Assembly: GCA_937885465.1 (NCBI GenBank)
Contig: CAKZZM010000154.1
Span: 7,760-71,759 of the forward strand
Length of the DNA: 64,000 nucleotides
Origin: an uncultured Bacteroidales bacterium
Lineage (GTDB): Bacteria; Bacteroidota; Bacteroidia; Bacteroidales; Paludibacteraceae
Direction of reading: 5' to 3'
Part shown: positions 11,259 to 29,010 of the stretch, piece by piece
Layout of the letters: each line of letters starts with the position of its first letter
How positions within the stretch are numbered: the stretch's first letter is position 1
Made by a program: the position numbers and the translations under genes
The notes under the pieces: generated by a model
Databases searched by the model: none
Told to the model about the DNA's origin: nothing
The model's input: only the letters and a program-made list of their open reading frames with translations

Positions 11259-11343
11259 CACTGCCCGACAATGTACCATGTACGAAAGTCCGGGCAGAAC
11301 CCTAAAGTTGAAAGCCGAAAGTTATACTACAAAGCAAATAGAT

Positions 11344-12638: not shown

Positions 12639-13868
12639 ATGGCTAAAACAGAAAACATCCTCCGCGTGATGGAGGAACTGAAAGAAAAAACAGGTGTTCC
12701 GCGCACCCTTTTCGCTGCGTGTCCTAACTCACTTGCAGTAATCAAGGCATCGTTCCGTGCTGCCAAGCGTAATAACTCACCCATCTATTTCGCCACGACG
12801 CTTAACCAAGTGGATTGCGACGGCGGCTACACCGGCATGACGCAGGCCGAGTTCACTAAGATACTCGCCCGTGAGGCAGCGGCAGTACACTATACCGGTC
12901 CGTATGTTGTGGCTATCGACCACGGCGGACCGTGGCTGAAAGATAAGCAGTCGATTGAGCGTTGGAATACCGAGCGTGCCATGCAAGGCGTGAAAGAGAG
13001 TTATGAGGCTGCTATTCTTGCCGGCTATGACCTCATCCATGTTGACCCGACAGTGGATATCTTCCTGCCTAAAGGACAAATAATTGATATTCATGTTGTT
13101 GTCAAGCGTACCGTCGAACTGATTAAGCACGCCGAAGACTTCCGCAAAGCGCATAACTTACCACCTATCTCTTACGAGGTGGGAACGGAAGAGGTGCACG
13201 GCGGATTGGCCGACGACAAGACCTTCGATACTTTCTTGACAGGCTTGAAGGCAGGTTTGCACGAGGTTGGACTCGATGATATATGGCCGTGCTTTATTGT
13301 GGGGAAAGTTGGTACTGACCTGCATACCACTTTCTTCGATGCCGATGTGGCACGAAAACTGACGGCTAAGGTTAGACCTTACGGCAGTTATATCAAGGGG
13401 CACTATTCCGATGATGTGGATAATCCCGAAGATTATCCTAAGGCAGGTATGGGAGCCGCCAATGTAGGACCTGAATTCACTATGAATGAGTATGATGCTC
13501 TCGCTGAACTCGAAGAGGAAGAGAAGAAGTTGTTTGCCGAAGGTAAAGTGGCGCAACTGAGCAATATGACACAAGTCCTATGGAAATTAGTGCACGAGAG
13601 TAACCGATGGAAGAAATGGCTACACGGGGACGAGGTCGGCAAAGACCTGAGCGAGTGCTCGCCAGAACGACAACTATGGCTCGTGCAGACAGGCTGCCGA
13701 TATATATGGCAGAAGCCGGAAGCACTCGTCGCCCGTCAGATGCTCTACGATAATCTTAACCACCTCGGCATAAATGCCGAAGAGGTCGTGCTGATGCGCA
13801 TAGAGCATAATATGGATAAGTATTATAATGCGTTCAATATAGTTAATCTGAATGATTATTTGAAATAG
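12639..13868 (+). CDS. GatZ/KbaZ-family protein (tagatose-bisphosphate aldolase accessory subunit / tagatose-6-phosphate 4-epimerase family)
   Basis: 409 aa. The N-terminal block ACPNSLAVIKASFRAAKRNNSPIYFATTLNQVDCDGGYTGMTQAEF parallels the GatZ block ...[21 protein letters not shown]. Confidence 0.8.
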   Translation: MAKTENILRVMEELKEKTGVPRTLFAACPNSLAVIKASFRAAKRNNSPIYFATTLNQVDCDGGYTGMTQAEFTKILAREAAAVHYTGPYVVAIDHGGPWLKDKQSIERWNTERAMQGVKESYEAAILAGYDLIHVDPTVDIFLPKGQIIDIHVVVKRTVELIKHAEDFRKAHNLPPISYEVGTEEVHGGLADDKTFDTFLTGLKAGLHEVGLDDIWPCFIVGKVGTDLHTTFFDADVARKLTAKVRPYGSYIKGHYSDDVDNPEDYPKAGMGAANVGPEFTMNEYDALAELEEEEKKLFAEGKVAQLSNMTQVLWKLVHESNRWKKWLHGDEVGKDLSECSPERQLWLVQTGCRYIWQKPEALVARQMLYDNLNHLGINAEEVVLMRIEHNMDKYYNAFNIVNLNDYLK

Positions 13869-14020: not shown

Positions 14021-14029
14021 TATTCTGAT

Positions 14030-15430
14030 ATGAAGAAACCTGCGTATATATTATTTGCGATGTTGGCGGTGATGCTGTGTGCTTGCGGCGGTTGCAAAGG
14101 TCCTGTATCACAGGACGAGCCGCAGCAGGAGCAGCCGGTAACGGAACAAGTTGACCTGAGTCTGATCAAGCAATCCGTACCCGTAACCGATGACTGGGTT
14201 TGGAGCGGCAAGCCGGACATAACGATTCATATCGAGAATGGTAATGCGGTAGCCGTGAAAGTGGGCGTGTCGGTTCGCTACGCGAAGGACAATAAGGAAA
14301 AGGTGGAAACCGTGACTGACAGCGTAGAGGTGCCTGCCAACGGAGCGATAGACTACAAGGCGACTACGACTACGATGTTGAATCCGGGAGTGTATCGCGC
14401 CGGTTGCTACGTGAATAATAAGGTCGCACGGAACTTCAATTTTGCTATTGATCCGTTCAGTATCAAGTCAGAACCGGATAAGCAGCCGGATTTCGATGAG
14501 TTTTGGCAGAATGCCAAGGAGCAGTTGGCAGGTGTGGAAATGAACGCCACGCTGACTGAGTTGCCGGAAAAGAGCAGTACGATACGTAAGGTTTATTTAG
14601 TGGAGATGTACTCCGTGCCTGATGATCCTTCGGGTGAGCCGGTGAAGATCCGCGGTTACTACTGCGAGCCGCAGGACGGGCAGAAGCACCCTGTGATTAT
14701 GCACTACTACGGCTACGACACGCAGGGCAGTACGGCCAAGTGCGAGTGTCCGAGCGGCGGTTCGTCGAAGTACGCGGAGTTCTACCTGTCGCATCGCGGG
14801 CAGTATCTGAACAACCGTCCCGCCTCGACGGGTAACCCGGGTGTGACAGAGGATTGCGTTAGTTACTATGGCGACTGGTTCTCGTACAACTTCGGCAACC
14901 GAGACACGTGGTATTACCGCGGCGCGTATATGGATGTGGTGCAGTCGGTACGGTTCATGGCAACGCGTGAGACGAGCGACATGACGAAGCTGTTCGGCGA
15001 AGGGTCGAGTCAGGGCGGTGCGCTGACCTACGCTGCTGCCGCGTTGAGCGATTATCCGTTCTCGGCTATCGCCTGCAATGTGGCTTTCCTCGGCGATTTT
15101 GCGGATGCGATGGACGGCATAGGCGGCTTGGCGATGGAGCTGACTAAGGGGGCACGCGGTTCGATGAGCAATGAAGAGGTGCTCAAGTTCCTGAGTTACT
15201 TCGACACGAAGAACCTCGCTACTCATATATCATGCGCAGTGTTGGCAAGTAGCGGATTGCAGGATGATGTGTGCCCGCCAAGAACGAATATTGTGCCGTT
15301 CAATAACATCGCCGTGGCAGAGGCGGACAAGGAGTACGTGTTCGGTCCTGAGATGGGACACGACTACCCTAAAAACTGGAATAGTAAGATGTGGGAGTTG
15401 TTTAATAAGTTAAATCAGAAATACGAATAA
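14030..15430 (+). CDS. CE7/AXE1-like acetyl esterase lipoprotein
   Basis: Lipoprotein signal MKKPAYILFAMLAVMLCACGGC. Nucleophile elbow GEGSSQGGAL (G-x-S-x-G). Overall alpha/beta-hydrolase layout of acetyl xylan esterase / cephalosporin-C deacetylase family members. Confidence 0.75.
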   Translation: MKKPAYILFAMLAVMLCACGGCKGPVSQDEPQQEQPVTEQVDLSLIKQSVPVTDDWVWSGKPDITIHIENGNAVAVKVGVSVRYAKDNKEKVETVTDSVEVPANGAIDYKATTTTMLNPGVYRAGCYVNNKVARNFNFAIDPFSIKSEPDKQPDFDEFWQNAKEQLAGVEMNATLTELPEKSSTIRKVYLVEMYSVPDDPSGEPVKIRGYYCEPQDGQKHPVIMHYYGYDTQGSTAKCECPSGGSSKYAEFYLSHRGQYLNNRPASTGNPGVTEDCVSYYGDWFSYNFGNRDTWYYRGAYMDVVQSVRFMATRETSDMTKLFGEGSSQGGALTYAAAALSDYPFSAIACNVAFLGDFADAMDGIGGLAMELTKGARGSMSNEEVLKFLSYFDTKNLATHISCAVLASSGLQDDVCPPRTNIVPFNNIAVAEADKEYVFGPEMGHDYPKNWNSKMWELFNKLNQKYE

Positions 15431-15432
15431 CC

Positions 15433-16410
15433 ATGAAGCAGTTTGATATCATCGCCTTAGGCGAGTTGAATGTGGATTTGATACTCAATCAGATAGATGG
15501 TTTTCCTGAAGTAGGTAAGGAGAAATTTTTGAAGCAGATGACCCTGACCTTAGGTAGCAGTACCGCTATCTTTGCTGCCAATGCCGCTGCCTTAGGTGCC
15601 AAGGTGGCGTTCTGCGGAATGATAGGCAACGATAGTTTCGGCGACCTCGTAGAAACAAGTCTGCAAAAGAAAGGTGTGGACACTCGTTTCCTTATTCGGC
15701 AAGATAAGTACGCCACGGGGGCAACAATATGCATGAGTTATGACGAGGATCGTGCCAATCTTACCTATCAAGGGGCAATGGACTATATGTCGCTCGCAGA
15801 TATTAACCCCGAAGTGTTTAAGGTGGCGAAACATATTCATATATCATCCATCTTTATGCAAAGCGGCATACGCCGCGATATTGTGAAGATTCTCAATATC
15901 TGCAAAGAGAATGGCATCACCACCTCGCTCGACAGTCAGTGGGATCCGACCGAGAAGTGGGACATTAACCTGCAAGAAGTACTGCCACTCGTTACTTTAT
16001 TTATGCCCAACGAGACCGAACTGAAGTTCCTTACGAAGAGTGAGACTTTAGAAGAAGCGATAGAGAAAATTCGTCCATATACCAACGCTGCTGTTATAAA
16101 GTGTGGCAGCCGCGGCTCGATACTTATTCGTAAGGGTGAATTGCGGGACTCAGGAGAGCTTCAAACCTTTCCTGACAGAGTGCAAGAGGCGTTGCTTAAC
16201 ACTAATGTGGTGGATTGTATCGGTGCAGGTGACTCGTTCAATGCAGGGTTTATCGCTCGTTTCGCGGCAGGCGATGCCCTTGACCTGTGTCAGCAGTACG
16301 GCAATATGACCGGTGCTGTGAACACTACCGCCGCAGGCGGAACAGCAGCCTTCACCTCACGAGAGGAAGTAGAACGCATCGGACGAGAACGATTTGGCTG
16401 GGAGAAATAG
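15433..16410 (+). CDS. PfkB (ribokinase) family sugar kinase
   Basis: 325 aa. N-terminal GELNVDL and C-terminal VVDCIGAGDSFNAGF (PfkB signature 2). The start is 2 nt after the esterase stop. Confidence 0.85.
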   Translation: MKQFDIIALGELNVDLILNQIDGFPEVGKEKFLKQMTLTLGSSTAIFAANAAALGAKVAFCGMIGNDSFGDLVETSLQKKGVDTRFLIRQDKYATGATICMSYDEDRANLTYQGAMDYMSLADINPEVFKVAKHIHISSIFMQSGIRRDIVKILNICKENGITTSLDSQWDPTEKWDINLQEVLPLVTLFMPNETELKFLTKSETLEEAIEKIRPYTNAAVIKCGSRGSILIRKGELRDSGELQTFPDRVQEALLNTNVVDCIGAGDSFNAGFIARFAAGDALDLCQQYGNMTGAVNTTAAGGTAAFTSREEVERIGRERFGWEK

Positions 16411-16431
16411 TGGAGAACGTCTCCGAACGTT
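16410..16431 (+). repeat. RepA copy whose TAG provides the pfkB stop codon
   Basis: GAG AAA TAG TGGAGAACGTCTCCGAACGTT. The TAG at 16408-16410 is the 5-prime TAG of the extended RepA consensus. Confidence 0.9.
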
Positions 16432-16509
16432 TGGTAGTAGCGTTGTCAATTACGCCGAATATTATTCGGCAGCCCCTTCATAAATAGCGTAAGCGCTTCG
16501 TAAATAATT

Positions 16510-19218
16510 ATGAAATATATGATGCACATACTGTTGATTGTTGCAGCCATGGCAACGGAGGTGTCAGGGGCGTCGTGGTATGTGCGGACTGATGGTTTGG
16601 ACGGCAATGACGGCAAGAGTTGGGAGACGGCGCAGTCAACGATACAGTTGGGTATTGACAACTGTCGCGTGGGCGATACCTTATACATAGCCGAGGGCGT
16701 GTATCATGAGGGCATTGTGTTGAAAGACGGCATCGCCATCATCGGCGGTTGTGCGGCAGGTGAGTACGGCACCCGCAAATATCCAACGTTCGATAGTGGA
16801 GAACGTCTCCGAACGTTCTCAGACGTTCTCCACTCAGGCGGCAGAACTATCTTGGATGGTACGGGGTTAGGCACACGGCTTATCAGTTGCGAGCAAGACT
16901 GCCATCGTCCGACCTTGGTGCAGGACCTTATATTGCAAAATGCGCGTCATAGTCAGCGTGGCGGTGGCGCATGGCTACGTGGCAAGGTGACGATGCGACG
17001 ATGTGTAGTGCGCGGTTGCAGCGGTACGTTGTGCGGCGGCGTGCTGATTAAAGGTGACCTGCCCGAATCGTCTGCCCTTGGTGCCCGATTAGAAGACTGC
17101 CTTGTGCATAACTGCACGGCTACCGGTCATGAGTGGCCGGATGCCGGCGGTGTGGCGAACTTCGACGGCACACTGGTTCATTGCACGATAGCGAACAACT
17201 ACGGCGACCGCTATGGCGGCATACACAGCGAGAGTTCGGTGTATGACTGCACGATGTGGGGCAATAGGAACGAATACGGTTTTGTAGATCCGACGAATTA
17301 CGTGTCGGACGAGAGTGAGTCCGGCATGAGCCGTGCTGACGAGGGGTTCGAACAGCAGTTTTTCGTTTATCCGTGGTTGAGTGAGCAGAATGAGGCAACA
17401 GCCGGTCCGCATTTCCGTGACCCCGCCACATTTGCAGGAGTGCCGACGAATAAGGCAGAGGAAGATATAATGCAGGCGGCAGACTATAGTATAGGTGAGC
17501 CTGCGCATCGCATAGAGAAAATGCCGCCTGCCGTTCCCCGTGCCGATAATAGAAATAGAAAAACTATCTCGTCCGAGAATTTAGAATATACAGTTCCGTC
17601 ATATATGTCTTTTTTGGTGGATAGTACTGCGACACTTGTGAGTAAGGAAGCACCTTATTGTATTGCTGCGCAGATCAATGGAGACCCGCGCAAACGTATG
17701 GCGTTCTGCTGGTTTACAAATGAAGGTGTTACGCGGGGAGAGGTGCAGTTGTTAGCGAAGAAAGATGCTACGGTAGCAGATTTTGAGACGAGTTTTTCAG
17801 TGGAGAATGTCTCCGAACGTTCACAAGTGGAGAACGTCTCCGAACGTCTGGCGGTAGAGACGGTGTTTTCCACCGTCTCTCAAATAGTGGAGAACGCCTC
17901 CGAACGTTCACAAGTGGAGAACGCCTCCGTAGCGCAAACGGTACGTAGCGTAAGCACTTCGTACTTGGTACCTGCCTCTCCTACTACAACTCCGCCTTTG
18001 CACTATGCTATATCTTCGTCAGGCATACTGAATAAGGCAAATATCAGCAAGAATACGGCATTCCGCTATGTCAGTCATAAGGCACTTGCCGACGATCTGC
18101 AACCCAGTACCGACTATTCGTGGCGATGCGGATATGAAGGACATTTTTCGGAAATTTTCCATTTCCGTACTGCTGACAACCGACAAAAAGATTTTTCGTT
18201 TGTCTATATGACGGATAGTCATATTCACAATCAGGAGTATATCGATGCAACAAGGCAGTGTGCGGAAGCGGTAGCGAGAAATGAGAGAGATGCGCGATTT
18301 TGCGTCTTCCCTGGTGATTTCGTAGATACCGGTACGGAGAACAACAGTGAGTGGGAGTGGGAGAGATGGTTCGAAGAAGCAATGAAACCTGTCCTTCGTC
18401 AGATGCCGCTTGTGCCGACCGATGGCAACCACGACGATTCACCACTGCTGAACTATACGTATCACTTCAATACTGATACGACGTTCAACATGACGACGCA
18501 GGTGCGTCCGCAGTTTGCGGGCATCAACTACAGCTTCACGTACGGCGATATGCAGTTGATCGCCTTCTCCGAGCAGGATTTTTGGCGTGGCGAGTACGAT
18601 TATTCCGCTCTTACCTCCGAGTATCTCGAGCGCGATTTGGGCGGTTGGATACATCGGCAGGTGGAAAAGGAGAAAAATGTGAAGTGGAGAGTCGGCTTAG
18701 TGCATAAGAATCTCTTCTCGGGTTCGGATCATCAGCGTGATAAGGAAACGCCACTCTTGCGTGCTACTCTTCTGCCGGTGATGAGAGATTGTCATATCGA
18801 CCTTTTATTGCAGGGACACGACCACACTTACGAAGTGATAGGACCCGTTGATCCGGATACTAAGAAACCTATTCTGTCTGCTATCTCGAATCAAGAGACG
18901 GTACCTGTTGATGCGGTCAGGAATATAACCGGCAAGAAAGACGGCACATACGATGTCAGCAGCGGAACGCTTTATTTTATAGGCGCGACTTGTGGCGCGA
19001 AGAGATATACGCCGCTCAAGCGCGAAGAGATGGACGCGAGCAAGCATATTCATCAGGTGGATAATTACTTTGACCTCTTTACCGGAATGTTCGGTCAACC
19101 CGGAGCACCTTCTTACACGAGAGTGACGGTGAAAAAAGATTACCTGTTGCTTGAATCGTTCAATGTTCTGCCGAATGGCAAGACGGAGCTGTTCAACACC
19201 CTGAAGATCGTTAAATAA
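16510..19218 (+). CDS. secreted beta-helix + purple-acid-phosphatase-like metallophosphoesterase, paralogue 1 (two in-frame repeat insertions)
   Basis: Signal peptide, then a right-handed beta-helix type N-terminus (SWYVRTDGLDGNDGKSWETAQSTIQ). PAP-N-like domain, then the metallophosphoesterase motifs MTDSH, PGDF, DGNHD, VHKNLF, QGHDH. Confidence 0.8.
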   Translation: MKYMMHILLIVAAMATEVSGASWYVRTDGLDGNDGKSWETAQSTIQLGIDNCRVGDTLYIAEGVYHEGIVLKDGIAIIGGCAAGEYGTRKYPTFDSGERLRTFSDVLHSGGRTILDGTGLGTRLISCEQDCHRPTLVQDLILQNARHSQRGGGAWLRGKVTMRRCVVRGCSGTLCGGVLIKGDLPESSALGARLEDCLVHNCTATGHEWPDAGGVANFDGTLVHCTIANNYGDRYGGIHSESSVYDCTMWGNRNEYGFVDPTNYVSDESESGMSRADEGFEQQFFVYPWLSEQNEATAGPHFRDPATFAGVPTNKAEEDIMQAADYSIGEPAHRIEKMPPAVPRADNRNRKTISSENLEYTVPSYMSFLVDSTATLVSKEAPYCIAAQINGDPRKRMAFCWFTNEGVTRGEVQLLAKKDATVADFETSFSVENVSERSQVENVSERLAVETVFSTVSQIVENASERSQVENASVAQTVRSVSTSYLVPASPTTTPPLHYAISSSGILNKANISKNTAFRYVSHKALADDLQPSTDYSWRCGYEGHFSEIFHFRTADNRQKDFSFVYMTDSHIHNQEYIDATRQCAEAVARNERDARFCVFPGDFVDTGTENNSEWEWERWFEEAMKPVLRQMPLVPTDGNHDDSPLLNYTYHFNTDTTFNMTTQVRPQFAGINYSFTYGDMQLIAFSEQDFWRGEYDYSALTSEYLERDLGGWIHRQVEKEKNVKWRVGLVHKNLFSGSDHQRDKETPLLRATLLPVMRDCHIDLLLQGHDHTYEVIGPVDPDTKKPILSAISNQETVPVDAVRNITGKKDGTYDVSSGTLYFIGATCGAKRYTPLKREEMDASKHIHQVDNYFDLFTGMFGQPGAPSYTRVTVKKDYLLLESFNVLPNGKTELFNTLKIVK
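16796..16833 (+). repeat. 38-nt full palindromic RepA in frame in paralogue 1
   Basis: GTGGAGAACGTCTCCGAACGTTCTCAGACGTTCTCCAC is translated as [13 protein letters not shown]. It is absent at the aligned position of paralogue 3 (…MYETIIDGTDIG…). Confidence 0.9.
17800..17972 (+). repeat. about 174-nt composite block RepA-RepA-RepB-RepA-RepA(truncated)-RepE in frame in paralogue 1
   Basis: RepA at 17800, 17827, 17887 and 17914; RepB at 17852-17883; RepE-like CGTAGCGTAAGCACTTCGTACTTGGTAC. Translated as [58 protein letters not shown]. Confidence 0.9.
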
Positions 19219-19373
19219 AGTACCAAGTGATAAAGTACCAAGTGACGAAGTACCAAGTACCGCTTACGCTAAGGAGACGTTCTCCACTGCACTTATATCT
19301 CTCGTCTTTATAAAGTCGGCATTTAATGCCGACCAAACGCTAAAAGTCAAGTGGAGAACGTCTCCGAACGTTC
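19219..19373. repeat. mosaic RepE - partial inverted RepA - RepD (19295-19333) - RepA (19351-19373)
   Basis: Read directly between paralogues 1 and 2. Confidence 0.9.
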
Positions 19374-19415
19374 ACAAGTTAGGAGAAATTCTCCATAATT
19401 CAAAACTCAAATACC

Positions 19416-21131
19416 ATGAAAAGAATCTATTACATTCAATTGATTGGCATGGTTGCCTTGTTTGCAGCATGCAAGCATGACCCTGTTGTTGAGCCGGAAG
19501 AGCCTCAGCAGCAGGACACAACTGAGCAGTATGTGCCGAAGGCGGAATGGGAGTTGGCTGACTCGCTATATACGCCGGCTGACTACACTGTGCCGAGTCA
19601 TACGATGCTCAAGATTGCCATCAGCGCTTGTGCCGACAATCCGAGCGAGGAAAACCTGGCAGTGATGCGCCAAAAGATCGAGGAGTTGGTGCCCAAGACT
19701 GAGCCTTACTGCATGGTTGCTACCATCAACGGCGACCCGAAGAGCAGGATGGGGTTTTGTTGGATGACCAATGACAGTGTTTTCGATGGCGTGGTGCAAC
19801 TTGTTGCCAAAGAGAATGCTACAGAAGCGGACTTTGAGTCAGGCGTGATAGAAATACCTGCTACGACCAAACGAACCAAAGCCATTACCTATGGTGGCAT
19901 TTGCTCCTATATTGTCCGTGCTTCAGGCATTCCGAAAAATGAGAAATATCGTTATATCAGCCACAAGGCAATAGCAGAGAACCTGACTCCCGGTTGTGCT
20001 TATTCGTGGCGAGTAGGCTACGAAGGCCATTGGAGTAAGATAGCCCAATTCCGTACTGAAGATGCAGAGCAAGGTGAATATTCGTTTATCTATATGACTG
20101 ACAGCCATATTATGAATGCAGAATATATCAGTAAGGCACGCCGTTGTGCCCTTGCCGCAGCCAAAACTGTACCTGAAGCACGTTTCTGTGTATTTCCCGG
20201 CGATTTTGTTGAAGATGGTGAACAGGTTAATAGCGAATGGGAGTGGGAGAGATGGTTTGAGGAAGCAATGAAACCTGTTATTATGCAAATGCCTATTGTT
20301 CCTACTGATGGTAACCACGATCCCAGTCCCAATCTTAATTATACGCACCATTTCAATACTGACAATGCTTTTTACAATAGTTGTTTTATCCCGCAGTACG
20401 AAGGTGTCGTTTACGATTTTGTATATGGAGACGCATTGTTTCTTGTCTTTTCCATGCAGGATTATTGGCGTGTCCAATATAGTTATGCTGACCCGCCCTC
20501 ATCAATCTATCTAAATAAGATTAGTGATTGGTTCATCAGTCGTACAACAGCCAATCCTGACACTAAGTACCGTATCTCTTTGGCACATTTCAATCTGTTC
20601 TCAGGGTCAGATCATTCTATAGACAACGATCCTCCGCTCTTCCGTGCATGTATGTTGCCAACGATGAAGCTTTGTGAGGTTGATTTAGCGTTGCAGGGGC
20701 ATGATCACACCTACGAGGTTATTGGTCCGGTTAATCCGGATGATTGTACGCCGATACTGGACGCTATCTCTGACCGTGAGGAAGTGCCTGTTGATAAAAA
20801 TATGAACGCAACGGGTTACAAAGGCGGCACTTTCTGCACCGATGACGGTACGCTCTATTTTATCGGTGCCACTTGCGGGGCAAAAAAATACTATCCTCAC
20901 AGCCGTGAGCGGATGGAGGCTGATTATAATAGCGGCAAGCACAATGTGCCGAACTACTTTGACCTGTTCACGGGTATGTTCGGTCAGCCGGAGAAACCGA
21001 GTTTCACGAAGATCACGGTGAAAGATGATTGCATTGAGTTTAATTCTTATACTGCAGACAACGATGAGGGCAATGTGACGCTGTTCAACACCATGCGCGT
21101 TGTCCGCACTAAACCTCATAGCGTGCCATAA
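19416..21131 (+). CDS. purple-acid-phosphatase-like metallophosphoesterase lipoprotein, paralogue 2 (no beta-helix module)
   Basis: Lipoprotein signal LFAACKHD. Same PAP-N + metallophos architecture and motifs (MTDSH, PGDF, DGNHD, AHFNLF, QGHDH). Contains the NSEWEWERWFEEAMKPV block identical to paralogue 1. Confidence 0.85.
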   Translation: MKRIYYIQLIGMVALFAACKHDPVVEPEEPQQQDTTEQYVPKAEWELADSLYTPADYTVPSHTMLKIAISACADNPSEENLAVMRQKIEELVPKTEPYCMVATINGDPKSRMGFCWMTNDSVFDGVVQLVAKENATEADFESGVIEIPATTKRTKAITYGGICSYIVRASGIPKNEKYRYISHKAIAENLTPGCAYSWRVGYEGHWSKIAQFRTEDAEQGEYSFIYMTDSHIMNAEYISKARRCALAAAKTVPEARFCVFPGDFVEDGEQVNSEWEWERWFEEAMKPVIMQMPIVPTDGNHDPSPNLNYTHHFNTDNAFYNSCFIPQYEGVVYDFVYGDALFLVFSMQDYWRVQYSYADPPSSIYLNKISDWFISRTTANPDTKYRISLAHFNLFSGSDHSIDNDPPLFRACMLPTMKLCEVDLALQGHDHTYEVIGPVNPDDCTPILDAISDREEVPVDKNMNATGYKGGTFCTDDGTLYFIGATCGAKKYYPHSRERMEADYNSGKHNVPNYFDLFTGMFGQPEKPSFTKITVKDDCIEFNSYTADNDEGNVTLFNTMRVVRTKPHSVP

Positions 21132-21186
21132 CAAAGTACCAAGTGACGAAGTACGATGTACGATACCGTTCGGAGACGTTCTCCAC
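21131..21186. repeat. RepE block plus truncated inverted RepA
   Basis: CAAAGTACCAAGTGACGAAGTACGATGTACGATACCGTTCGGAGACGTTCTCCAC. Confidence 0.85.
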
Positions 21187-21213
21187 TATTATAATCCTAA
21201 ATATACATTTATT

Positions 21214-24200
21214 ATGAAAAAACTATTCTTTCTTTTGACGCTGTGCACAGCGGTGCTGTGTGCTTCTGCGAGCAATAAGTATGTGCGCCCCGACGGCGAT
21301 GATTCGCTCGATGGCAAATCATGGGCTAACGCCTTTGCTACTATCCAAACGGCAGTATGGGGCGTACCGGCAGGTGACACCGTTTTTATCGCTGAGGGTA
21401 CTTATAATCAGCGATTTTCCGTCAGTGATGGTCAGACTATCCTCGGTGGCTATAACGCCCAGACGGGGGAGCGCGACATCGAGATGTACGAAACGATAAT
21501 CGATGGTACTGATATAGGTCAGTATCTGATAGTTAAGTATGATGGTCCCCCTACCAATCATATTTTGATAGAGGGTCTTACTCTGCAGAATGCTCAGCAT
21601 GATCAGTGGGGCGGCGGAGCCATCTATCTACGCGATAATATGACGGTTCGTCAGTGCCATATACGCAACTGCCGTGGTGGAACGGCGGGCGCCATCTTCA
21701 TCGACCATAATGATGCCGCGACCGTGCAGGCGGTGGTTAGCGGCTGCATAGTGGAACTATGCTCAGCCAACGGCTGCGCCGCTATCTACAATAACAACGG
21801 CATAGTGGAGAACTGCATAGTACGCGGTTGTAGCGGCAAAGCGGGGGCTATACGCAACGAGACGGCCGCCGGCATAGTACGCAACTGCGTAGTGCATAAC
21901 AACACCCTCACCGGCACTTGGCCTAATAGCGCCATCTATAACAAAGGTTTAGTCTATAATTGCACCGTAGCCAATAACCACGGCGACCAATATGCGGGCA
22001 TTCATTCTGAAGGTATGGTGTATAATTCCGTCTTTTGGGGGAATACAAACCCGACCGATTTCAGCGATCCTGCTAACTATATCAATGGTAGCAACTCCAC
22101 GCACAACGTGGCAGACGAAGGTTTCGGCAAGAGTTCTGCATATCTGAGTCTGACTCTCTCTGCCAATAATACCGATGTGGCGGGTCCTAATTTCCGCAAC
22201 CCGACGAATTTCGCAGGTGTGCCTGCCGATGATGCGCAGATCACCAGTATGCAGAATGCCGATTTCTCGCTCACCGATGCTTCTGTGGCATTGCTTGATA
22301 AGGCTGAGGCGGCATCTGCTACCACCACCGACATCACCGGTGTCGCTCGTCCCAAAGGAACGGGTTACGACATAGGTGCATACGAGTACGATCCCGATGC
22401 CGTTACTGTTGCCGTAACAGGTGTTAGTATTCAGCAAGATACCCTCAGAGTGATTGTCGGTCAGACAGCCACCTTCACCGTTATTATAACACCTGCCGAT
22501 GCTAATAATAAGCGGGTAAGTTGGGAATGTCAGGATGCTACTGTGGCAACAATACAGAATGGCATAGTAACAGGTCTGAGAGAAGATACCACTTTGGTCA
22601 GTGTGACCACGCAGGATGGAGCTTTCACTGCCACAGCAGTGTTAGTAGTTCTGCCCGTTCCGCCCGTTTATTATCCGGTAGAGGTCTTGGCTGCAGATAC
22701 TCTGTATAAGCAGGCTGACTATACAGTGCCGTCTTATATCCCCTTCCTCATCGCTAAGGAAGCCGCAAGGATAGATAGTGCTACTGCTGAGGATGTTACT
22801 GCTATTGCCGATAAGATAGCAGAGATGAATATTGCTATCGGTAATCTTGTGAACAAAGAAGAACCATATAATATGGTTGCCAATATCAACGGTGATCCGT
22901 CAATGCGTATGGCGTTCTGCTGGTTCACTAACGAAGGTATAACGGATGGAGTGGTGCAACTTCTTGCAATGGAAAATGCTACGGCAGACGACTTCGAGAC
23001 GAATAACGGCGTTATAACTATTACCGCAGAGGCGACCACGACTCCTGCGCTCAATTATGCCGTTGCCACTTCGGGTATAGCAAAGGCGGCGGGCATTGCC
23101 GGTAATACCAAATTCCGCTATGTCAGCCACAAAGCACTTGCCGATAATCTGACAGCTGGCACAACCTATTCGTGGCGAGTAGGTTATGAAGGGCATTATT
23201 CCGATATCGCCCGTTTCCGCACAAAAGATGCAGTGCAGGGCGAATATTCTTTCCTCTATATGTCGGATAGTCATATTCAGGATGCAGAGTATGTAAATAA
23301 TGCTAAATGGTGCGCTATGGCAGCAGTGCAGACCGTTCCGGAAGCTCGTTTCTGCCTCTTCCCCGGCGACTTTGTCGAGACAGGCACCAAGTCGAACTCC
23401 GAGTGGGAGTGGGAGAGATGGTTCGAGGAATCGATACGACCGGTGATAATGCAGATGCCTATCGTGCCAACTGATGGTAATCACGATGATAGCGAGAATC
23501 TTAATTACGACTATCACTTCAATACCGACTGGGGATTCTACTCAATGGTGCAGTCGCACAAACCGCAGTTCCACGGCATAACCTATTCGTTTGTCTATGG
23601 AGATGTCCTCTTTCTTGTTTATTCGTTGCAAGATTGGTGGCGAGCAAGCGGCAGTAGTGCCGAAGGCAGGTTGTCATCGTATCTCTCAAATGATGTGAAA
23701 AACTGGTTTAATGAGCAGATTGCGGCGCATCCGAACACCAAATATCGCGTGACACTTGCTCATAAAAATATCTTCTCCGGTTCAGGACATTCAACCGATG
23801 ATGAGATACCGATGTTCCGTGATATTATGTTGCCTATTTTGAAAGATTGTCAGATCGACCTTGCTATTCAGGGGCATGACCACTGCTATGAGGTTATAGG
23901 TCCGGTTAATCCTGATACCCGCACATTAGTGGAAGGGGCTGTGGAAGATGTAGAGACGGTTGCCGTCAATACCAATACGAATATGACCGGCAAGCAAGGC
24001 GGCACTTTCACCACCGATGACGGTACGCTGTATTTCATTGGAGCAACTTGCGGGCGTAAGCGTTACTACCCGTATAGCCGTGCTAAGATGGAGGAGAAAT
24101 ATACTACCGACCCGTCTGTTCTTTATGATGATAACCACCACGATGTAGAGAATTATTTTGACCTCTTCACAGGCATGTTTGGTCAACCGGGTGCTCCTTC

Positions 24201-24450
24201 ATTCACTAAGTTTACTGTTAAGAGCGACTGCCTTGAGGTTAATTCCTATACAGCCGACTCGAACGGCAATGCTACTCTTATCAATACAATGCGAGTGAAG
24301 CGTAACACTGCCCACACCGTTCCCTCTGGCTACGAAGACGTGCAGCAGCAGCGCACCATCCGCGACGGCGAGAAGTTCATCCGCGGTGGTCAAATGCTGA
24401 TTCGCAAGGATGGCAAGACCTACAATGTGCTGGGTGAGGTGGTAGAGTAA
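21214..24450 (+). CDS. secreted beta-helix + Big_2 + purple-acid-phosphatase-like metallophosphoesterase with T9SS-like tail, paralogue 3
   Basis: I prefer the ATG at 21214 (MKKLFFLLTLCTAVLCASA signal peptide) over the ORF-track start 21100, which reads through repeat sequence. Ig-like Big_2 segment VTGVSIQQDTLRVIVGQTATFTV...VSWECQD. Motifs MSDSH, PGDF, DGNHD, AHKNIF, QGHDH. Tail FIRGGQMLIRKDGKTYNVLGEVVE. Confidence 0.85.
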   Translation: MKKLFFLLTLCTAVLCASASNKYVRPDGDDSLDGKSWANAFATIQTAVWGVPAGDTVFIAEGTYNQRFSVSDGQTILGGYNAQTGERDIEMYETIIDGTDIGQYLIVKYDGPPTNHILIEGLTLQNAQHDQWGGGAIYLRDNMTVRQCHIRNCRGGTAGAIFIDHNDAATVQAVVSGCIVELCSANGCAAIYNNNGIVENCIVRGCSGKAGAIRNETAAGIVRNCVVHNNTLTGTWPNSAIYNKGLVYNCTVANNHGDQYAGIHSEGMVYNSVFWGNTNPTDFSDPANYINGSNSTHNVADEGFGKSSAYLSLTLSANNTDVAGPNFRNPTNFAGVPADDAQITSMQNADFSLTDASVALLDKAEAASATTTDITGVARPKGTGYDIGAYEYDPDAVTVAVTGVSIQQDTLRVIVGQTATFTVIITPADANNKRVSWECQDATVATIQNGIVTGLREDTTLVSVTTQDGAFTATAVLVVLPVPPVYYPVEVLAADTLYKQADYTVPSYIPFLIAKEAARIDSATAEDVTAIADKIAEMNIAIGNLVNKEEPYNMVANINGDPSMRMAFCWFTNEGITDGVVQLLAMENATADDFETNNGVITITAEATTTPALNYAVATSGIAKAAGIAGNTKFRYVSHKALADNLTAGTTYSWRVGYEGHYSDIARFRTKDAVQGEYSFLYMSDSHIQDAEYVNNAKWCAMAAVQTVPEARFCLFPGDFVETGTKSNSEWEWERWFEESIRPVIMQMPIVPTDGNHDDSENLNYDYHFNTDWGFYSMVQSHKPQFHGITYSFVYGDVLFLVYSLQDWWRASGSSAEGRLSSYLSNDVKNWFNEQIAAHPNTKYRVTLAHKNIFSGSGHSTDDEIPMFRDIMLPILKDCQIDLAIQGHDHCYEVIGPVNPDTRTLVEGAVEDVETVAVNTNTNMTGKQGGTFTTDDGTLYFIGATCGRKRYYPYSRAKMEEKYTTDPSVLYDDNHHDVENYFDLFTGMFGQPGAPSFTKFTVKSDCLEVNSYTADSNGNATLINTMRVKRNTAHTVPSGYEDVQQQRTIRDGEKFIRGGQMLIRKDGKTYNVLGEVVE

Positions 24451-24473
24451 GAACGTTCGGAGACGTTCTCCAC
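24451..24473 (-). repeat. inverted RepA immediately after the stop codon
   Basis: TAA GAACGTTCGGAGACGTTCTCCAC. Confidence 0.95.
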
Positions 24474-24525
24474 TGGTAGGAAAAAAATACAATTAACCAT
24501 ATTTATTAACTAAAATTCTAATAGT

Positions 24526-26433
24526 ATGAAAAAGATTTTTTCATTTCTTGCTGTCATTCTGATGGCAATGGCAGTGAATGCTGAGGTGATTCAGATTACC
24601 CCCACCTCACCTCATTCATCCAATAACCTGCGCCAAGCAATCGCTGCAGCGGCCACCGGTGATATTGTTGAAATGGCTGCCGGTACGTATGAAGAGTCGG
24701 GTGACTACCTCGCTTTTACAGGAAAAGAAGTAATAGTTCGTGCCGCAGAAGGTGCAGAGGTAATTATCAAGCCGGTGTGCCCTGTACGTTTGAAATCAGG
24801 AGCTAAGGCTGAATTTATCAACGTCAAATTTGACTGTAGTACTGTAGGCTCTTATGATTACGTAATTGTACCAGCTGATGACACAGATAATAAACGCGTT
24901 GTCCTTACAGGTTGTGAGTTCTATGGTTGGGATAAAAATAAAGCCATGATAGAGGCTACGTCCTCCAGAAGATTAGATGCTATCACAATTGAAAATTGCT
25001 ATTTCCACAACTGCATGAAGAGTGTTGTTTTCGTAGAAAACACCGGCTCCATTGATTTAAGCATTACCAATACAACTTTTGCCAATATCTCGACAGATGC
25101 ATCGGCTTTCTATGCAGGTGTAATTGACTCTCGCGCCACTTCCGGTTCGTTTCTTGTTGACCATTGCACATTCTACAATGTTCAAGTAATGAATACGGAT
25201 TATGCTGCTGTTGGTAAGGTAAAACTTACGTCAGGTGCAGTAGTATCCAATTGTATCTTTGCAATGCCGGAGAGCACATCCGGTGTTCGTACCATTCGTG
25301 ATGCCGTTGCTGCTAATAACTGTATGGTTTTCAATTATGCAAGCGATTCCAATCTTGGTATGCAGAGTGCAGTAACAAAAACCAATTGCGTTGTGGCTGA
25401 TCCGCTCTTTGTTGATGCGGATAATGGTGATTACACTCTCGGCGAGGAGTCACCTGCGTTGGGTGCCGGAACGGATGAAAGCAACCTTGGTGATCCGCGT
25501 TGGTGGCCGGCTGATGAGACTCCCGAGCCTGCTAAGGAGTATGTTGGTGTTTACAATTGGTCCACAGGTGATGATGCTATCGGTGTAACTGCTTTGGGGG
25601 CAACCGGCGTGGATATATCTACTGTGAAGATTCATAACAATACTGATTCAAAGGATGCCATCAAGTTTTCATCTTCGTATGCTTATGCAGGTGGCAAGTA
25701 TCTTGTTATCAAACCTGAAGAAGGCAAATTCTTGGAGGGTGACGAAGTTTATTTCTCTGCCGTTATCAGCAATGATGCAACCGATGGCTCGAAATATGCT
25801 CAAGTTGATATCTATGCAGCGGACGGTAGTACCCGTCTCTTCCGTAGCGATACTGTAGTAAATGGAAAAATGAGTTCAGATGAGCCTGTTATTGAAAACT
25901 TCGTTCTGTCAGCGGAGCAAGATTCGATATTAGTAGGTCGTTATGGTAACACCAATATGTTCGTACTCAGCCTGACCGTTGTTCGTCCGGTAAGTGAGAC
26001 TCCCGAGCCTGAACATATCTATTCAGTAGCCGGTAGTGAGGCATTGCTTGGCACGAATTGGAATGAGGCGGAAGGCAATGAGATGGTTAAGCAGGACGAT
26101 GGCACATATCAGCTCGTGCTATCAGATGTTGAACTGGTAGTTGGCAACTACGAGTATAAAGTGGTAATTGATCATATATTGAACAACGGCGAGGCAGAAA
26201 GTAACTCTGTACTTGAGATCACCACAGCCGGTCGCTACAATGTTACGTTCACTTACGATCCTTCCGTTCCTACAACAAGCGCAGAGGCTGAACTCATTGA
26301 GGAAATAATTGTTCTGCCAACAGCCATCGACAACGCAGGTGCAGCTGTTAAGGCACAGAAAGTGGTGATTGACGGTCAGTTGCTGATTATTCGTGGTGGT
26401 AAGATCTTCAACGCACAAGGGCAACTGCAATAA
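24526..26433 (+). CDS. secreted right-handed beta-helix protein with C-terminal Ig/CBM-like module and T9SS-like tail
   Basis: Signal peptide. N-terminus LRQAIAAAATGDIVEMAAGTYEE and DPLFVDADNGDYTLGEESPALGAG are typical of beta-helix (lyase-fold) proteins. Two TPEP linkers. A GNYEYKVV motif module. Tail VVIDGQLLIIRGGKIFNAQGQLQ. Confidence 0.7.
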   Translation: MKKIFSFLAVILMAMAVNAEVIQITPTSPHSSNNLRQAIAAAATGDIVEMAAGTYEESGDYLAFTGKEVIVRAAEGAEVIIKPVCPVRLKSGAKAEFINVKFDCSTVGSYDYVIVPADDTDNKRVVLTGCEFYGWDKNKAMIEATSSRRLDAITIENCYFHNCMKSVVFVENTGSIDLSITNTTFANISTDASAFYAGVIDSRATSGSFLVDHCTFYNVQVMNTDYAAVGKVKLTSGAVVSNCIFAMPESTSGVRTIRDAVAANNCMVFNYASDSNLGMQSAVTKTNCVVADPLFVDADNGDYTLGEESPALGAGTDESNLGDPRWWPADETPEPAKEYVGVYNWSTGDDAIGVTALGATGVDISTVKIHNNTDSKDAIKFSSSYAYAGGKYLVIKPEEGKFLEGDEVYFSAVISNDATDGSKYAQVDIYAADGSTRLFRSDTVVNGKMSSDEPVIENFVLSAEQDSILVGRYGNTNMFVLSLTVVRPVSETPEPEHIYSVAGSEALLGTNWNEAEGNEMVKQDDGTYQLVLSDVELVVGNYEYKVVIDHILNNGEAESNSVLEITTAGRYNVTFTYDPSVPTTSAEAELIEEIIVLPTAIDNAGAAVKAQKVVIDGQLLIIRGGKIFNAQGQLQ

Positions 26434-26442
26434 GCAGACTTA

Positions 26443-26558
26443 GTGGAGAACGTCTCCGAACGTTCGTAGAGACATCCAGGGAGGGTGTCTCTCAATAGTG
26501 GAGAACGTCTCCGAACATTCAGATGTCAAAAGTCTGAACATTTGGAGACGTTCTCCAC
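26443..26558. repeat. RepA (26443) - RepB variant (26466-26495) - 61-nt long palindromic RepA pair (26498-26558)
   Basis: The palindromic pair is GTGGAGAACGTCTCCGAACATTCAGATGTCAAAAGTCTGAACATTTGGAGACGTTCTCCAC. Confidence 0.9.
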
Positions 26559-26592
26559 TCGTATATTTTTGTTGTATTTTTTGCAACAATAT

Positions 26593-26624
26593 ATTGCGTA
26601 ATTGAAAATAAGATAGTAACTTTG
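26593..26624 (+). promoter_or_regulatory. promoter candidate (ATTG-N20-TAacTTTG)
   Basis: TAACTTTG at 26617-26624, with an imperfect -33 (ATTG) ending at 26596. It lies upstream of the 26718 gene; the 5-prime UTR would contain RepE. Confidence 0.4.
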
Positions 26625-26628
26625 AGAT

Positions 26629-26702
26629 GTACGATTTAAGTCACTTAGTACTTCGTCACTTGGTACTTCGTCACTTGGTCACTTTCAGTAACTTTTCACT
26701 TC
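26629..26702. repeat. RepE GTAC/CACTT-rich block
   Basis: GTACGATTTAAGTCACTTAGTACTTCGTCACTTGGTACTTCGTCACTTGGTCACTTTCAGTAACTTTTCACTTC. Confidence 0.85.
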
Positions 26703-26717
26703 TAATTAATAACTACT

Positions 26718-28225: not shown

Positions 28226-28233
28226 TTTAAGTG

Positions 28234-29010
28234 TTATACCATTTTCAGCTCAATGCCGGCTGCTTTGAGGCGCGAGGGCAGACCGGTTGGTATGGCTCGG
28301 TCGGTGATGATGCAATGTATCTCAGAGGCGTTTGCTATATGGACGAAACTGCGTTTGTTGAATTTCGATGAGTCGAACACGGCGATTACCTTCGCAGCCT
28401 GTTGTATCATCTGTTGGTTGAGTAGGGCTTCTTCTAACGAAGGGGTAGAAACGCCGTTTTCTAACGAGAACGAATCTACTCCCAAAAATAACTTGTATCC
28501 GCTGAAGTTCCGCAGTACGGATATGGCGAGCGGACCGACGGTGGAATGACTGTTGACACGCACATTGCCGCCTATGAGAATAACATCGAAACGCTTATAT
28601 CGCATCAGCTCGGTGGCGATGTTCATAGCGTTGGTAATGATATGCAGGTTATAGAAATTGTCTAAGTGTCGTGCTATCTCAAGTGTGGTGGTGCCTGAGT
28701 CGAGCATGATGAAATCACCCTCGTTGATCATCTTTGTCGCTTCTTCCCCTATCCTCTCTTTTTCCTTAAAGTTAAATAACTTTTTCTTTCCGATAGAAGT
28801 GTCCTCATTCGGGTTTTCTATCGGTCGGCGCATCGCGCCTCCTCGTGTTCGAATGAGAAGGTTGCGACTTTGCAATATTGTGAGGTCCTTACGAATGGTA
28901 ACCTCTGATATGCCTGTTTCGCGACTCAGTTCTGTTACCAGAACCTCTTCTTTTTTCTCTAACTGCCGCAGGATAAGTGCCCTGCGTTCTTTTGCCGATG
29001 ATGCGTTCAT
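28234..29010 (-). CDS. DeoR family transcriptional regulator
   Basis: 258 aa. N-terminal wHTH (RRALILRQLEKKEEVLVTELSRETGISEVTIRKDLTILQ) and a C-terminal DeoR sugar-phosphate sensor domain (MLDSGTTTLEIA). Confidence 0.9.
   Translation of the reverse strand: MNASSAKERRALILRQLEKKEEVLVTELSRETGISEVTIRKDLTILQSRNLLIRTRGGAMRRPIENPNEDTSIGKKKLFNFKEKERIGEEATKMINEGDFIMLDSGTTTLEIARHLDNFYNLHIITNAMNIATELMRYKRFDVILIGGNVRVNSHSTVGPLAISVLRNFSGYKLFLGVDSFSLENGVSTPSLEEALLNQQMIQQAAKVIAVFDSSKFNKRSFVHIANASEIHCIITDRAIPTGLPSRLKAAGIELKMV

Follow-up and report, generated by a model that had tools for sequence, protein, structure and literature searches.

Plant purple acid phosphatases (PAPs), such as those of kidney bean (1kbp/4dsy), the wheat phytase (6gja) and lupin PPD1 (3zk4), combine an N-terminal FN3-like domain with a binuclear metallophosphoesterase domain, in which the tyrosine of the GDxxY motif, a ligand of the Fe(III) site, is the source of the purple colour. 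A comparable two-domain fold is present in PhoD of Bacillus subtilis (2yeq), a secreted bacterial enzyme whose phosphodiester substrates include teichoic acid. Where the polysaccharides of microbial surfaces and matrices carry phosphate esters (as in teichoic-acid-like polymers, phosphodiester-linked capsules and phosphomannan), glycosidases are blocked and, to our knowledge, few enzymes that remove these esters are known from glycan utilisation loci. Two such phosphatases, BT3783 and BT2630, belong to the yeast-mannan loci of Bacteroides thetaiotaomicron and dephosphorylate the glycan so that glycosidases can proceed; BT3783, which has been likened to a tyrosyl-DNA phosphodiesterase, contains one Mg site (PMC4978465). 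The present analysis concerns an array of four genes in a 64,000-nucleotide stretch of DNA, hereafter the window, from an uncultured Bacteroidales bacterium of the family Paludibacteraceae (contig CAKZZM010000154.1, positions 7,760 to 71,759), which encode three predicted phosphoesterases of PAP fold, named PAP1, PAP2 and PAP3, and a secreted beta-helix protein, BH4.

PAP1–3 belong to a phosphoesterase family of PAP fold whose modular architecture and genomic role are both new. In the reading that is tentatively preferred here, at slightly less than an even chance, they would be glycan-tethered phosphoesterases that strip phosphate esters from a microbial polysaccharide rich in galactosamine or N-acetylgalactosamine (GalN/GalNAc).

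The catalytic core of PAP1, PAP2 and PAP3

The region 16510–26433 carries four same-strand open reading frames (ORFs) in the ORF list of the window, at the positions given by the original prediction, a model's reading of the nucleotide letters; only the start of the third requires a correction. This ORF is listed as 21100–24450, from a TTG codon overlapping the PAP2 gene, and since its first methionine preceding a signal peptide is residue 39, the PAP3 gene most likely spans 21214–24450. The first three genes share, as had been proposed, a core composed of Pur_ac_phosph_N (PF16656; 46.3, 43.2 and 39.7 bits in PAP1, PAP2 and PAP3, curated cut-off 30) and Metallophos (PF00149; 46.4, 40.9 and 51.9 bits, curated cut-off 21.5). 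The cores of PAP1 and PAP3 are 54–62% identical to PAP2, and the 3.05-Mb assembly (209 contigs, 97.5% complete, 6.65% contamination) contains no further paralogues. NCBIfam assigns no family to PAP1, PAP2 or BH4, and the close named relatives, which come from rumen/gut Paludibacteraceae metagenome-assembled genomes, are annotated only as "metallophosphoesterase family protein".

In the three-way alignment the catalytic motifs are retained as FPGDFV, TDGNHD, H(K/F)N(L/I)F and QGHDH, together with the block NSEWEWERWFEE, previously noticed as near-identical and in fact identical in all three proteins; the first motif reads M(T/S)DSH and not (M/T)DSH as originally reported. PAP2 was aligned with 35 relatives of 466–878 aa (36 sequences in total) and modelled with AlphaFold2 (AF2), reaching a mean predicted local distance difference test (pLDDT) score of 91.7. 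With this model Foldseek places lupin PPD1 first (E 9e-24), followed by the wheat PAP phytase and the kidney-bean and sweet-potato PAPs down to E 1e-18, with template modelling (TM) scores of 0.50–0.69 against the plant PAPs; the lower ranks are occupied by PhoD (1.8e-15) and then by mammalian PAPs, SMPDL3A and Rv0805. The profile of the 36 sequences retrieves the same plant PAPs from the PDB sequences (E 9e-20 to 4e-13), and the profile is needed for these matches, since the PDB sequence search with PAP2 alone was empty.

The metal ligands of PAP2 are D229, D263, E266, N300, H391, H429 and H431, and profile alignment with kidney-bean PAP sets D229, GD263, GNH300–301, H391, H400 and GH429xH431 opposite the PAP ligands. 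In particular, D229, D263, H301, H391, H429 and H431 are each present in 36/36 sequences, N300 in 35/36 and the second-shell H400 in 32/36. The five PAP motif blocks of the Metallophos domain (D, GDxx-, GNH(D/E), H and GHxH), along with the second-shell histidine, are in the PAP register, and plant PAPs are the best matches by both profile and fold. In contrast, the identity to plant PAPs is 13–16%, and all three paralogues have GDFV(E/D) at the GDxxY site and lack the tyrosine ligand: the equivalent column, opposite the Y of GDLSY in 1kbp, is Glu in 24/36 family members, Asp in 9/36 (33/36 together) and another residue in 3/36. Motif I is DxQ in 29/36 sequences and DxH in the other seven, PAP2 among them, and likewise reads DSH in PAP1 and PAP3. 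Also unlike plant PAPs, the PAP2 model is extended by a helical hairpin at the N-terminus and by a beta-sandwich at the C-terminus, and the bacterial proteins have lipoprotein or type IX secretion system (T9SS)-type export signals, beta-helix and Big_2 fusions, and a place in a SusC/D locus. On sequence and model, PAP1–3 are intact binuclear metallophosphoesterases of PAP fold with Glu/Asp replacing the tyrosine, whose activity is predicted; the label "PAP" needs a qualifier, because the chromophoric tyrosine ligand is Glu/Asp.

Beta-helix modules and export signals

The N-terminal modules of PAP1 and PAP3, originally described as beta-helices, are homologous to each other (34% identity, E 2e-60), that of PAP1 being about two coils shorter; the Pfam Beta_helix model scores 28.1 bits in PAP3, above its cut-off of 25.9, and 17.4 bits, below it, in PAP1. 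The Big_2 domain foreseen in PAP3 is above its cut-off as well (45 bits). An AF2 model of the PAP3 N-module, based on 35 N-module sequences from related loci, has a pLDDT of 91.1 and short strands throughout. Compared with 48,161 chains by VIA-align, it matches Rhombotarget A (9cdu, Z 27.2), the glycoside hydrolase BT_1002 (5mqp, 27.1), pectate lyase Pel9A (1ru4, 26.7) and a rhamnogalacturonan lyase (5olq, 26.0), and with lower scores PL6 lyases, epimerases and phage tailspike depolymerases, including phi29 gp12 (19.7). The four best matches are tied, with 282–335 residues aligned at 14–16% identity, so that no single enzyme family can be named; Foldseek gives the same picture, more weakly. 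The modelled fold is certainly a right-handed beta-helix, and the module-by-module search by profile and structure that had been suggested as a check returned the expected folds for both the N-module (pLDDT 91.1, Z 26–27) and the core. In the literature searched (PAP, beta-helix, T9SS), the fusion of a beta-helix to a phosphoesterase was not found.

Conservation of at least 85% among the 35 N-modules is found mainly at Asn, Cys, Trp and Tyr positions; the conserved charged residues, given as alignment columns only, are four Asp (D55, D97, D301, D350) and one Arg (R140). The earlier designation of the helix as "lyase-fold" is borne out for the fold, whose strong neighbours are carbohydrate-active, and not for a lyase function; no lyase constellation was recognised among the conserved alignment columns. 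The same neighbours, with BT_1002, Pel9A, the rhamnogalacturonan lyase and phi29 gp12 all being carbohydrate-active helices or tailspike depolymerases, are what would be expected if the helices were the true depolymerases, lyases or hydrolases comparable to phage tailspikes, and the phosphoesterase were secondary; alternatively, the helices could be rigid stalks without sugar contact. Taken together, these readings centred on the helices are very unlikely, considering that the conserved residues form ladders of Asn, Cys, Trp and Tyr, that the PDB match of BH4 is limited to one segment of a lyase, and that the PAP ligands are strictly conserved.

BH4 corresponds to the fourth secreted beta-helix protein with a carbohydrate-binding module (CBM)-like domain of the original prediction: Pfam identifies DUF5123 (58.7 bits) and X25_BaPul_like (28.7 bits, cut-off 27), with a sub-threshold Beta_helix match. 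Its helix is of another type, related to the PAP3 module with E 0.001 over the N-terminal cap alone. The sole PDB sequence match is to residues 540–744 of BcAlyPL6 (7dmk, E 1.8e-7), which we take to be the non-catalytic C-terminal half of that enzyme, and the structural neighbours in the Atlas are DUF4957/DUF5123/chondroitinase-B-like proteins. A role of BH4 as a chondroitin- or alginate-type lyase was considered and set aside, because the locus has no uronate or unsaturated-sugar genes and no sulfatases; a literature search on DUF5123/DUF4957 found nothing relevant.

The proteins of the array differ in their export signals. PAP1 has a plain signal peptide and its C-terminus is the end of the core; it is predicted to be periplasmic because it has no lipobox and no C-terminal tail. 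PAP2, which had been called a bare lipoprotein, indeed has a signal peptide that leads to the lipobox cysteine (LFAAC), MKRIYYIQLIGMVALFAAC-KHD as read from the translation. Plain signal peptides are again found in PAP3 and BH4, which share the C-terminal tail K-x-(I/V)-x-(D/N)-G-Q-x-x-I-x-R-x-G-K-x-(Y/F)-N-x-x-G, a motif that by raw count ends 24 of the genome's 2774 ORFs of 150 aa or more, PAP3 and BH4 included. The T9SS-like tail attributed to PAP3 is not recognised by family models, since PF18962 and TIGR04183 have no match at E<=10 in the C-terminal 80 residues of either PAP3 or BH4 and the full Pfam and NCBIfam scans do not call either tail as a T9SS domain, but it is supported by the recurrence of the motif and by the T9SS translocon SprA encoded in the genome (SprA_N 596.7 bits). 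Short T9SS C-terminal domains of 43–55 aa are documented in Prevotella intermedia (PMC11969387), and 27 of 39 family members scanned have a Por_Secre_tail match at E<=1e-4. PAP3 and BH4 would be surface-displayed or released by type IX secretion, and PAP2 would be lipid-anchored. In nine relatives the middle paralogue is of two kinds, a tail-less lipoprotein in two of them (L005, L007) and a protein with plain signal peptide and short tail in the other seven (L019, L025, L030, L036, L039, L042, L044; two flagged by regular expression, the other five read by eye); as this paralogue switches between the two modes, lipid anchor and tail seem interchangeable. The same tail is found in a 690-aa secreted protein encoded at 8712–10787 on the reverse strand, which has no Pfam/NCBIfam match and has homologues in 3 of 65 related loci.

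The host locus and its distribution

The array is located within a locus of about 30 kb that has adjacent SusC/SusD genes, glycan-active enzymes and a regulator, the features by which a polysaccharide utilisation locus (PUL) is recognised (Table 1); its position downstream of amino-sugar genes, as first described, is thus more precisely a position inside this SusC/D locus.

Table 1. Features of the array and of its host locus, in coordinates of the window
Feature	Position	Strand	Description
AgaS-family sugar-phosphate isomerase/deaminase	11278..12555	+	SIS domain; TIGR02815 E 6.7e-106, under cut-off; core locus
GatZ/KbaZ-like tagatose-phosphate enzyme	12639..13868	+	PF08013 115.7 bits; in 42/65 related loci at 87–95% identity; core locus
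CE7-type (AXE1) esterase, predicted lipoprotein	14030..15430	+	PF05448; Cys-bearing signal peptide; accessory module
PfkB-family sugar(-phosphate) kinase	15433..16410	+	PF00294 153.7 bits; core locus
PAP1	16510..19218	+	902 aa; signal peptide, beta-helix, helical linker, PAP_N, Metallophos, C-terminal sandwich
In-frame GAGAACGYCTCCGARCGTTC repeat insertion, PAP1 beta-helix	16771..16836	+	repeat core at 16799; absent in 5/5 orthologues
In-frame GAGAACGYCTCCGARCGTTC repeat insertion, PAP1 PAP_N loop	17791..17952	+	about 50 aa of repeats; absent in 5/5 orthologues
PAP2	19416..21131	+	571 aa; lipoprotein signal (Cys19), helical linker, PAP_N, Metallophos, C-terminal sandwich
PAP3 (probable start)	21214..24450	+	1078 aa; signal peptide, beta-helix, Big_2, PAP_N, Metallophos, short C-terminal tail
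PAP3, beta-helix	21214-22404		
PAP3, choice-of-anchor-Q cap	22264-22392		
PAP3, Big_2	22411-22638		
PAP3, PAP_N	22864-23223		
PAP3, Metallophos	23251-23889		
PAP3, C-terminal tail	24313-24447		
BH4	24526..26433	+	635 aa; signal peptide, beta-helix, middle module, X25/CBM-like module, tail
BH4, DUF4957/DUF5123-type beta-helix	~24583-25515		
BH4, X25/CBM-like module	26056-26265		
BH4, short C-terminal tail	26296-26430		
AgaR-like DeoR repressor	28234..29010	-	DeoRC, HTH_DeoR; NF040755 242 bits, cut-off 260; core locus
Amidohydro_2 metal hydrolase, predicted lipoprotein	29255..30388	+	PF04909; also in the PAP-less locus L089
GH36-like alpha-galactosaminidase, predicted lipoprotein	30544..32496	+	match to 9awt
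SusC-like TonB-dependent transporter	32600-35572	+	domain scan
SusD-like lipoprotein	35616-37376	+	domain scan
PKD-domain lipoprotein	37462..38418	+	candidate surface glycan-binding protein
DUF4874/DUF4832 TIM-barrel-type hydrolase, predicted lipoprotein	38608..40020	+	PF16173, PF16116; candidate endo-acting enzyme
EamA-family inner-membrane transporter	40067..40939	+	core locus; also in L069 and L089

Residues 137–648 of the GH36-like protein match the "A type blood alpha-D-galactosamine galactosaminidase" 9awt (E 2e-49), and related loci encode a GH31 enzyme that matches the GH31 alpha-galactosidase 8j53 with E 1.4e-200. From these and the other enzymes of the locus, its target would be an alpha-linked polymer rich in galactosamine and galactose. 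The Amidohydro_2 lipoprotein, which has no PDB sequence match, is a candidate de-N-acetylase, and residues 145–455 of the CE7 esterase, downstream of a 145-aa N-terminal extension, match cephalosporin C deacetylase (1l7a, E 4.7e-34). The SusD ORF as listed begins at a TTG and has two repeat-element copies (35616–35740) ahead of the lipoprotein signal, its true start probably lying downstream. Between BH4 and AgaR, a 441-aa ORF with predicted membrane helices (26718–28043, forward strand) is absent from 65/65 related loci; two repeat-element copies encode its first ~30 residues, and it has no Pfam/NCBIfam match. In the interval 11000–29200, sigma-70 promoters (28 found, 27.9 expected) and terminators (13 found, 14.9 expected) occur at chance level and are uninformative on operon structure.

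The repeat in question is a dispersed element of about 29–30 bp whose 20-nt core, GAGAACGYCTCCGARCGTTC, consists of a 5-bp hairpin and an 8-bp palindrome. The genome contains 331 copies on 70/209 contigs and the window 26 exact copies, mostly just 3' of genes, with several in frame within coding sequence (e.g., 3505–3588, 16413, 16799, 17800–17935, 19354, 24451, 26446, 26733–26795, 28043–28102, 35678–35738, 43914–44032 and 52206–52262). Other short repeats occur in the window. The KbaZ–CE7 intergenic gap (13867–13998) is filled by 14.7 copies of the 9-bp tandem repeat AGTCCGGAA, and a comparable 9-bp array, GGAAAGTCC, is present in 6.7 copies at 10864–10923. Two arrays of a 15-bp unit, of 2.9 copies each and in inverted orientation (19215–19258 and 26640–26684), flank the PAP2–PAP3–BH4 block; because related 7-bp GTACTT-type arrays are found at 8199, 32520, 48916 and 61552, they need not mark a boundary and may instead represent a common intergenic motif.

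The 65 related loci come from a scan of one genome per species, and many are truncated, either at contig ends or at the limit of the 10-kb flank. By tblastn with the window proteins, agaS is present in 42 of them, in line with the co-occurrence that had been suggested as a check, KbaZ in 42, the CE7 esterase in 47, PfkB in 44, BH4 in 50, AgaR in 39, Amidohydro_2 in 31, the galactosaminidase in 26 and SusC in 13. PAP1, PAP2 and PAP3 form separate orthogroups and occur in the order 1-2-3 in 33 of the 65 loci and with an extra PAP3 in 4 more, the remaining loci being partial or otherwise composed. Orthologues from different species are up to 82% identical (73–76% for PAP1), closer than paralogue to paralogue; PAP1–3 diverged long ago, are conserved separately and differ in their export signals.

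The core family is sparsely distributed, being detected in 10/301 Bacteroidales genomes (E<=1e-30), G000 included, in 4/81 genomes and 3/33 genera of the Paludibacteraceae, and in 40/121 genomes of the genus (17/58 of those of high quality). The galactosaminidase is found in 44/121 genus genomes: 38 have both, 2 only PAP, 6 only the galactosaminidase and 75 neither. In the PAP-less locus L089 (genome G374, 100% complete) the gene order is AgaR, then agaS, KbaZ, PfkB, Amidohydro_2, galactosaminidase, SusC, SusD, one further gene, DUF4874/DUF4832, GH31 and EamA. The CE7 esterase is absent from 7/7 PAP-less, galactosaminidase-positive genomes and present in 3/3 PAP-positive controls. Since PAP-less loci exist and are also without the CE7 esterase, the CE7 esterase, PAP1–3 and BH4 constitute an optional accessory cassette on a self-sufficient core locus.

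Among independently rearranged loci, L069 of faecal Paludibacteraceae contains SusD, one further gene, DUF4874/DUF4832, GH31, EamA, CE7, an APH kinase, two PAP genes and a fusion of a DUF4957/DUF5123 helix, Big_2 and PAP. The minimal locus L090, of another genus, consists of an ECF sigma/FecR pair, SusC, SusD, DUF4874/DUF4832 and two fusions, one of helix, Big_2 and PAP and the other of DUF5123 helix, PAP and CBM11. The wider family has 2362 matches at E<=1e-3. Among 39 of 150 listed representatives that were scanned for domains (the long ones among the first 59), a beta-helix-type domain is present in 4, of BH4 type in two (P0125, P0133), Big_2 in 15, a phytase-like domain in 2 (P0154, P0155), LTD in one (P0177) and two Metallophos stretches in 7; giant homologues with two Metallophos domains occur in L087 and L088, the latter (G223:C8) of 1803 aa and near a CHAD-domain gene. 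An Atlas cluster of 51 proteins combines DUF5123, PAP_N and Metallophos. From L069, L090, P0125, P0133 and this cluster it follows that the PAP core has repeatedly been fused to, or placed next to, a BH4-type helix, with the DUF4832 hydrolase as the most constant neighbour of the two.

These data also bear on whether PAP1–3 are secreted acid or neutral phosphatases of broad specificity, active on monoesters, phytate and nucleotides, that serve general phosphate scavenging and are in the sugar locus, or co-regulated with it, only incidentally. This would agree with the PAP fold and with a plant PAP phytase among the best matches, with the wider family, which is mostly solitary T9SS cargo with no sugar genes near (L084, L085), and with the two phytase-like fusions. 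In contrast, the gene order within the locus is conserved, the galactosaminidase accompanies PAP in 38/40 genomes, L090 reduces the locus to SusC/D, the DUF4832 hydrolase, two helix-PAP proteins and an ECF/anti-sigma pair, beta-helix, CBM11-like and X25-like modules are found fused time after time, and different species retain the three paralogues with their three export routes, so that scavenging is judged unlikely. A phytase role was set aside, as no context supports it.

Proposed role and comparison with known systems

In the preferred reading, that of glycan dephosphorylation, the beta-helix, Big_2 and CBM-like modules would hold the catalytic domain on the glycan, and PAP1–3 would hydrolyse phosphate esters belonging to the polymer itself, which may be phosphate-linked substituents or bridges of the glycosyl-phosphate kind. 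PAP3, BH4 and PAP2 would first work on the polymer at the surface, PAP1 would then work in the periplasm on imported oligosaccharides, the CE7 esterase would take off acyl groups, and the DUF4874/DUF4832 hydrolase, the deacetylase/galactosaminidase pair and the AgaS pathway would complete the breakdown. The polymer could be an alpha-galactosamine/galactose-rich polysaccharide of the Pel or galactosaminogalactan type, and the presence of the array suggests that it carries phosphate groups. The glycan context, which had been put forward in place of simple phosphate scavenging, is supported because the array is a conserved, optional part of a SusC/D locus, because the galactosaminidase is found in 38 of the 40 PAP-positive genomes of the 121-genome genus sample, because both beta-helix types are fused to the PAP core elsewhere, and because relatives carry CBM11-like modules; the substrate may be a phosphoglycan, a teichoic-acid-like polymer or a nucleic acid.

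Several observations weigh against glycan dephosphorylation. We know of no Pel or galactosaminogalactan structure reported with phosphate, the target polymer itself is deduced from the locus, and typical PAPs are broad phosphomonoesterases. The locus is without the module in 6/44 galactosaminidase-positive genus genomes and in G374, so that the core pathway can do without phosphate removal. For the co-occurrence of PAP and galactosaminidase, the Fisher p (1e-22) overstates the support, because genomes of one genus are not independent. The periplasmic site of PAP1 is deduced solely from the lack of lipobox and tail, the DUF4832 protein of the window is akin to the Pel-active SIR_1591 (see below) at the Pfam level only, and the sequencing runs listed with the region are two DNA runs of one bioreactor-metagenome study, with no RNA run. 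In other Bacteroidales families the homologues are the solitary T9SS proteins mentioned above, a distant homologue (L086, G216:C31) clusters with DUF5689, DUF6359, Endonuclease_1 and Exo_endo_phos_3 genes, in surroundings that look like an extracellular nucleic-acid locus, and the LTD and phytase-like fusions fit hydrolysis of nucleic acid or of organic phosphate in general, which may well be the ancestral role of the family.

Because distant family members adjoin nuclease genes, a nucleic-acid substrate stays under consideration: PAP1–3 may be matrix-stripping phosphodiesterases which, tethered by their beta-helix or CBM modules to a cationic GalN-rich polymer, cut a non-covalently bound polyanion (extracellular DNA or RNA, polyphosphate) by which that polymer is cross-linked or shielded, and not esters of the glycan. 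Lupin PPD1, the nearest solved structure, cleaves pyrophosphate and phosphodiester bonds, and Pel binds extracellular DNA. The surroundings of L086, the CHAD-domain gene near L088 and the fusions to LTD or to a second Metallophos domain (7/39) point in the same direction, as do the Gram-positive pel loci with a DUF4832 gene, which also encode a polyphosphate polymerase (PMC7112168 and PMC12345266). In contrast, the locus in the window has no nuclease, nucleoside-transporter or nucleotide-salvage gene; PAP1 has a beta-helix without a surface signal and is predicted to be periplasmic, where matrix DNA is not expected; and the CE7 esterase co-varies with the PAP genes, which fits covalent decorations better. 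On balance, the stripping of a bound polyanion appears rather unlikely.

The DUF4832 family has a link with Pel. SIR_1591 of Streptococcus intermedius, a TIM barrel with DUF4832, disrupts aggregates that a GalNAc-rich Pel polymer holds together, as well as PelA does (PMC12345266), and the pel loci of streptococci and clostridia combine the DUF4832 gene with genes for a CotH kinase, a polyphosphate polymerase and DUF4956 (PMC7112168). This association is a second, independent link of the hydrolase family to phosphate chemistry. The literature searched held no other experimental information on DUF4832, a paper on amphioxus DUF4832 gave nothing on its function, and no paper was found there that describes a locus of Bacteroidota directed at polymers like Pel or galactosaminogalactan or, of any relevance, one on a teichoic acid PUL with a phosphodiesterase. 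The kinship of the window protein with SIR_1591 stays at the Pfam level, since its homologue listing is uninformative, with names reading just "DUF4832 domain-containing protein" and none of the 120 proteins listed being streptococcal. A bolder extension, quite unlikely as it stands, is that Gram-positive Pel-type (alpha-1,4-GalNAc/GalN) exopolysaccharides are phosphorylated or polyphosphate-decorated by the CotH-kinase and the polyphosphate-polymerase, and that the Paludibacteraceae module is the matching catabolic machinery, a new class of glycan-directed phosphoesterases clearing the backbone for the DUF4832 hydrolase and the alpha-galactosaminidase.

If glycan dephosphorylation is true, a modular PAP-fold family, triplicated with three export routes, has been recruited for this function as an optional cassette in a galactosamine locus. 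A confirmed substrate would provide tools to dismantle Pel-type biofilm matrices, a way to approach the phosphate-related accessory genes, so far unexplained, in the pel operons of Gram-positive bacteria and a new activity class for catalogues of carbohydrate-active enzymes; if PAP1–3 are plain phosphatases or nucleases, the array is an ordinary family expansion.

Among the described systems, right-handed beta-helix enzymes (Pel9A, the rhamnogalacturonan lyase, BT_1002, PL6) and Rhombotarget A share the fold of the PAP1 and PAP3 N-modules, from which they differ in the low identity already mentioned, in the absence from the modules of an identified conserved catalytic constellation and in the phosphoesterase fused to them. 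FpGalNase (GH36, 9awt), used with a GalNAc deacetylase on blood group A, is matched over ~510 residues by the galactosaminidase of the locus, and the adjoining Amidohydro_2 lipoprotein recalls the pair of deacetylase and galactosaminidase, although organism and context are different and the specificity of the locus enzyme is predicted from sequence; the Amidohydro_2 protein presumably belongs to another family than the F. plautii deacetylase. PhoD resembles PAP1–3 as a secreted bacterial protein of PAP-like two-domain fold, but it is a weaker match than the true PAPs, the PhoD_N and PhoD Pfam families are not hit and the metal site differs.

Like the Pel systems, the locus in the window encodes a DUF4874/DUF4832 protein; unlike it, they are producer-side genes of Firmicutes, whereas a SusC/D locus of Bacteroidota is on the consumer side, and phosphate on Pel is not mentioned in the passages of PMC7112168 and PMC12345266 consulted. 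BT3783 and BT2630 are a precedent for locus-encoded glycan phosphatases (PMC4978465), with genes inside a PUL as in the case of PAP1–3; in contrast to the modular and triplicated PAP1–3, they are single small proteins of unrelated fold, with no beta-helix or CBM fusion.

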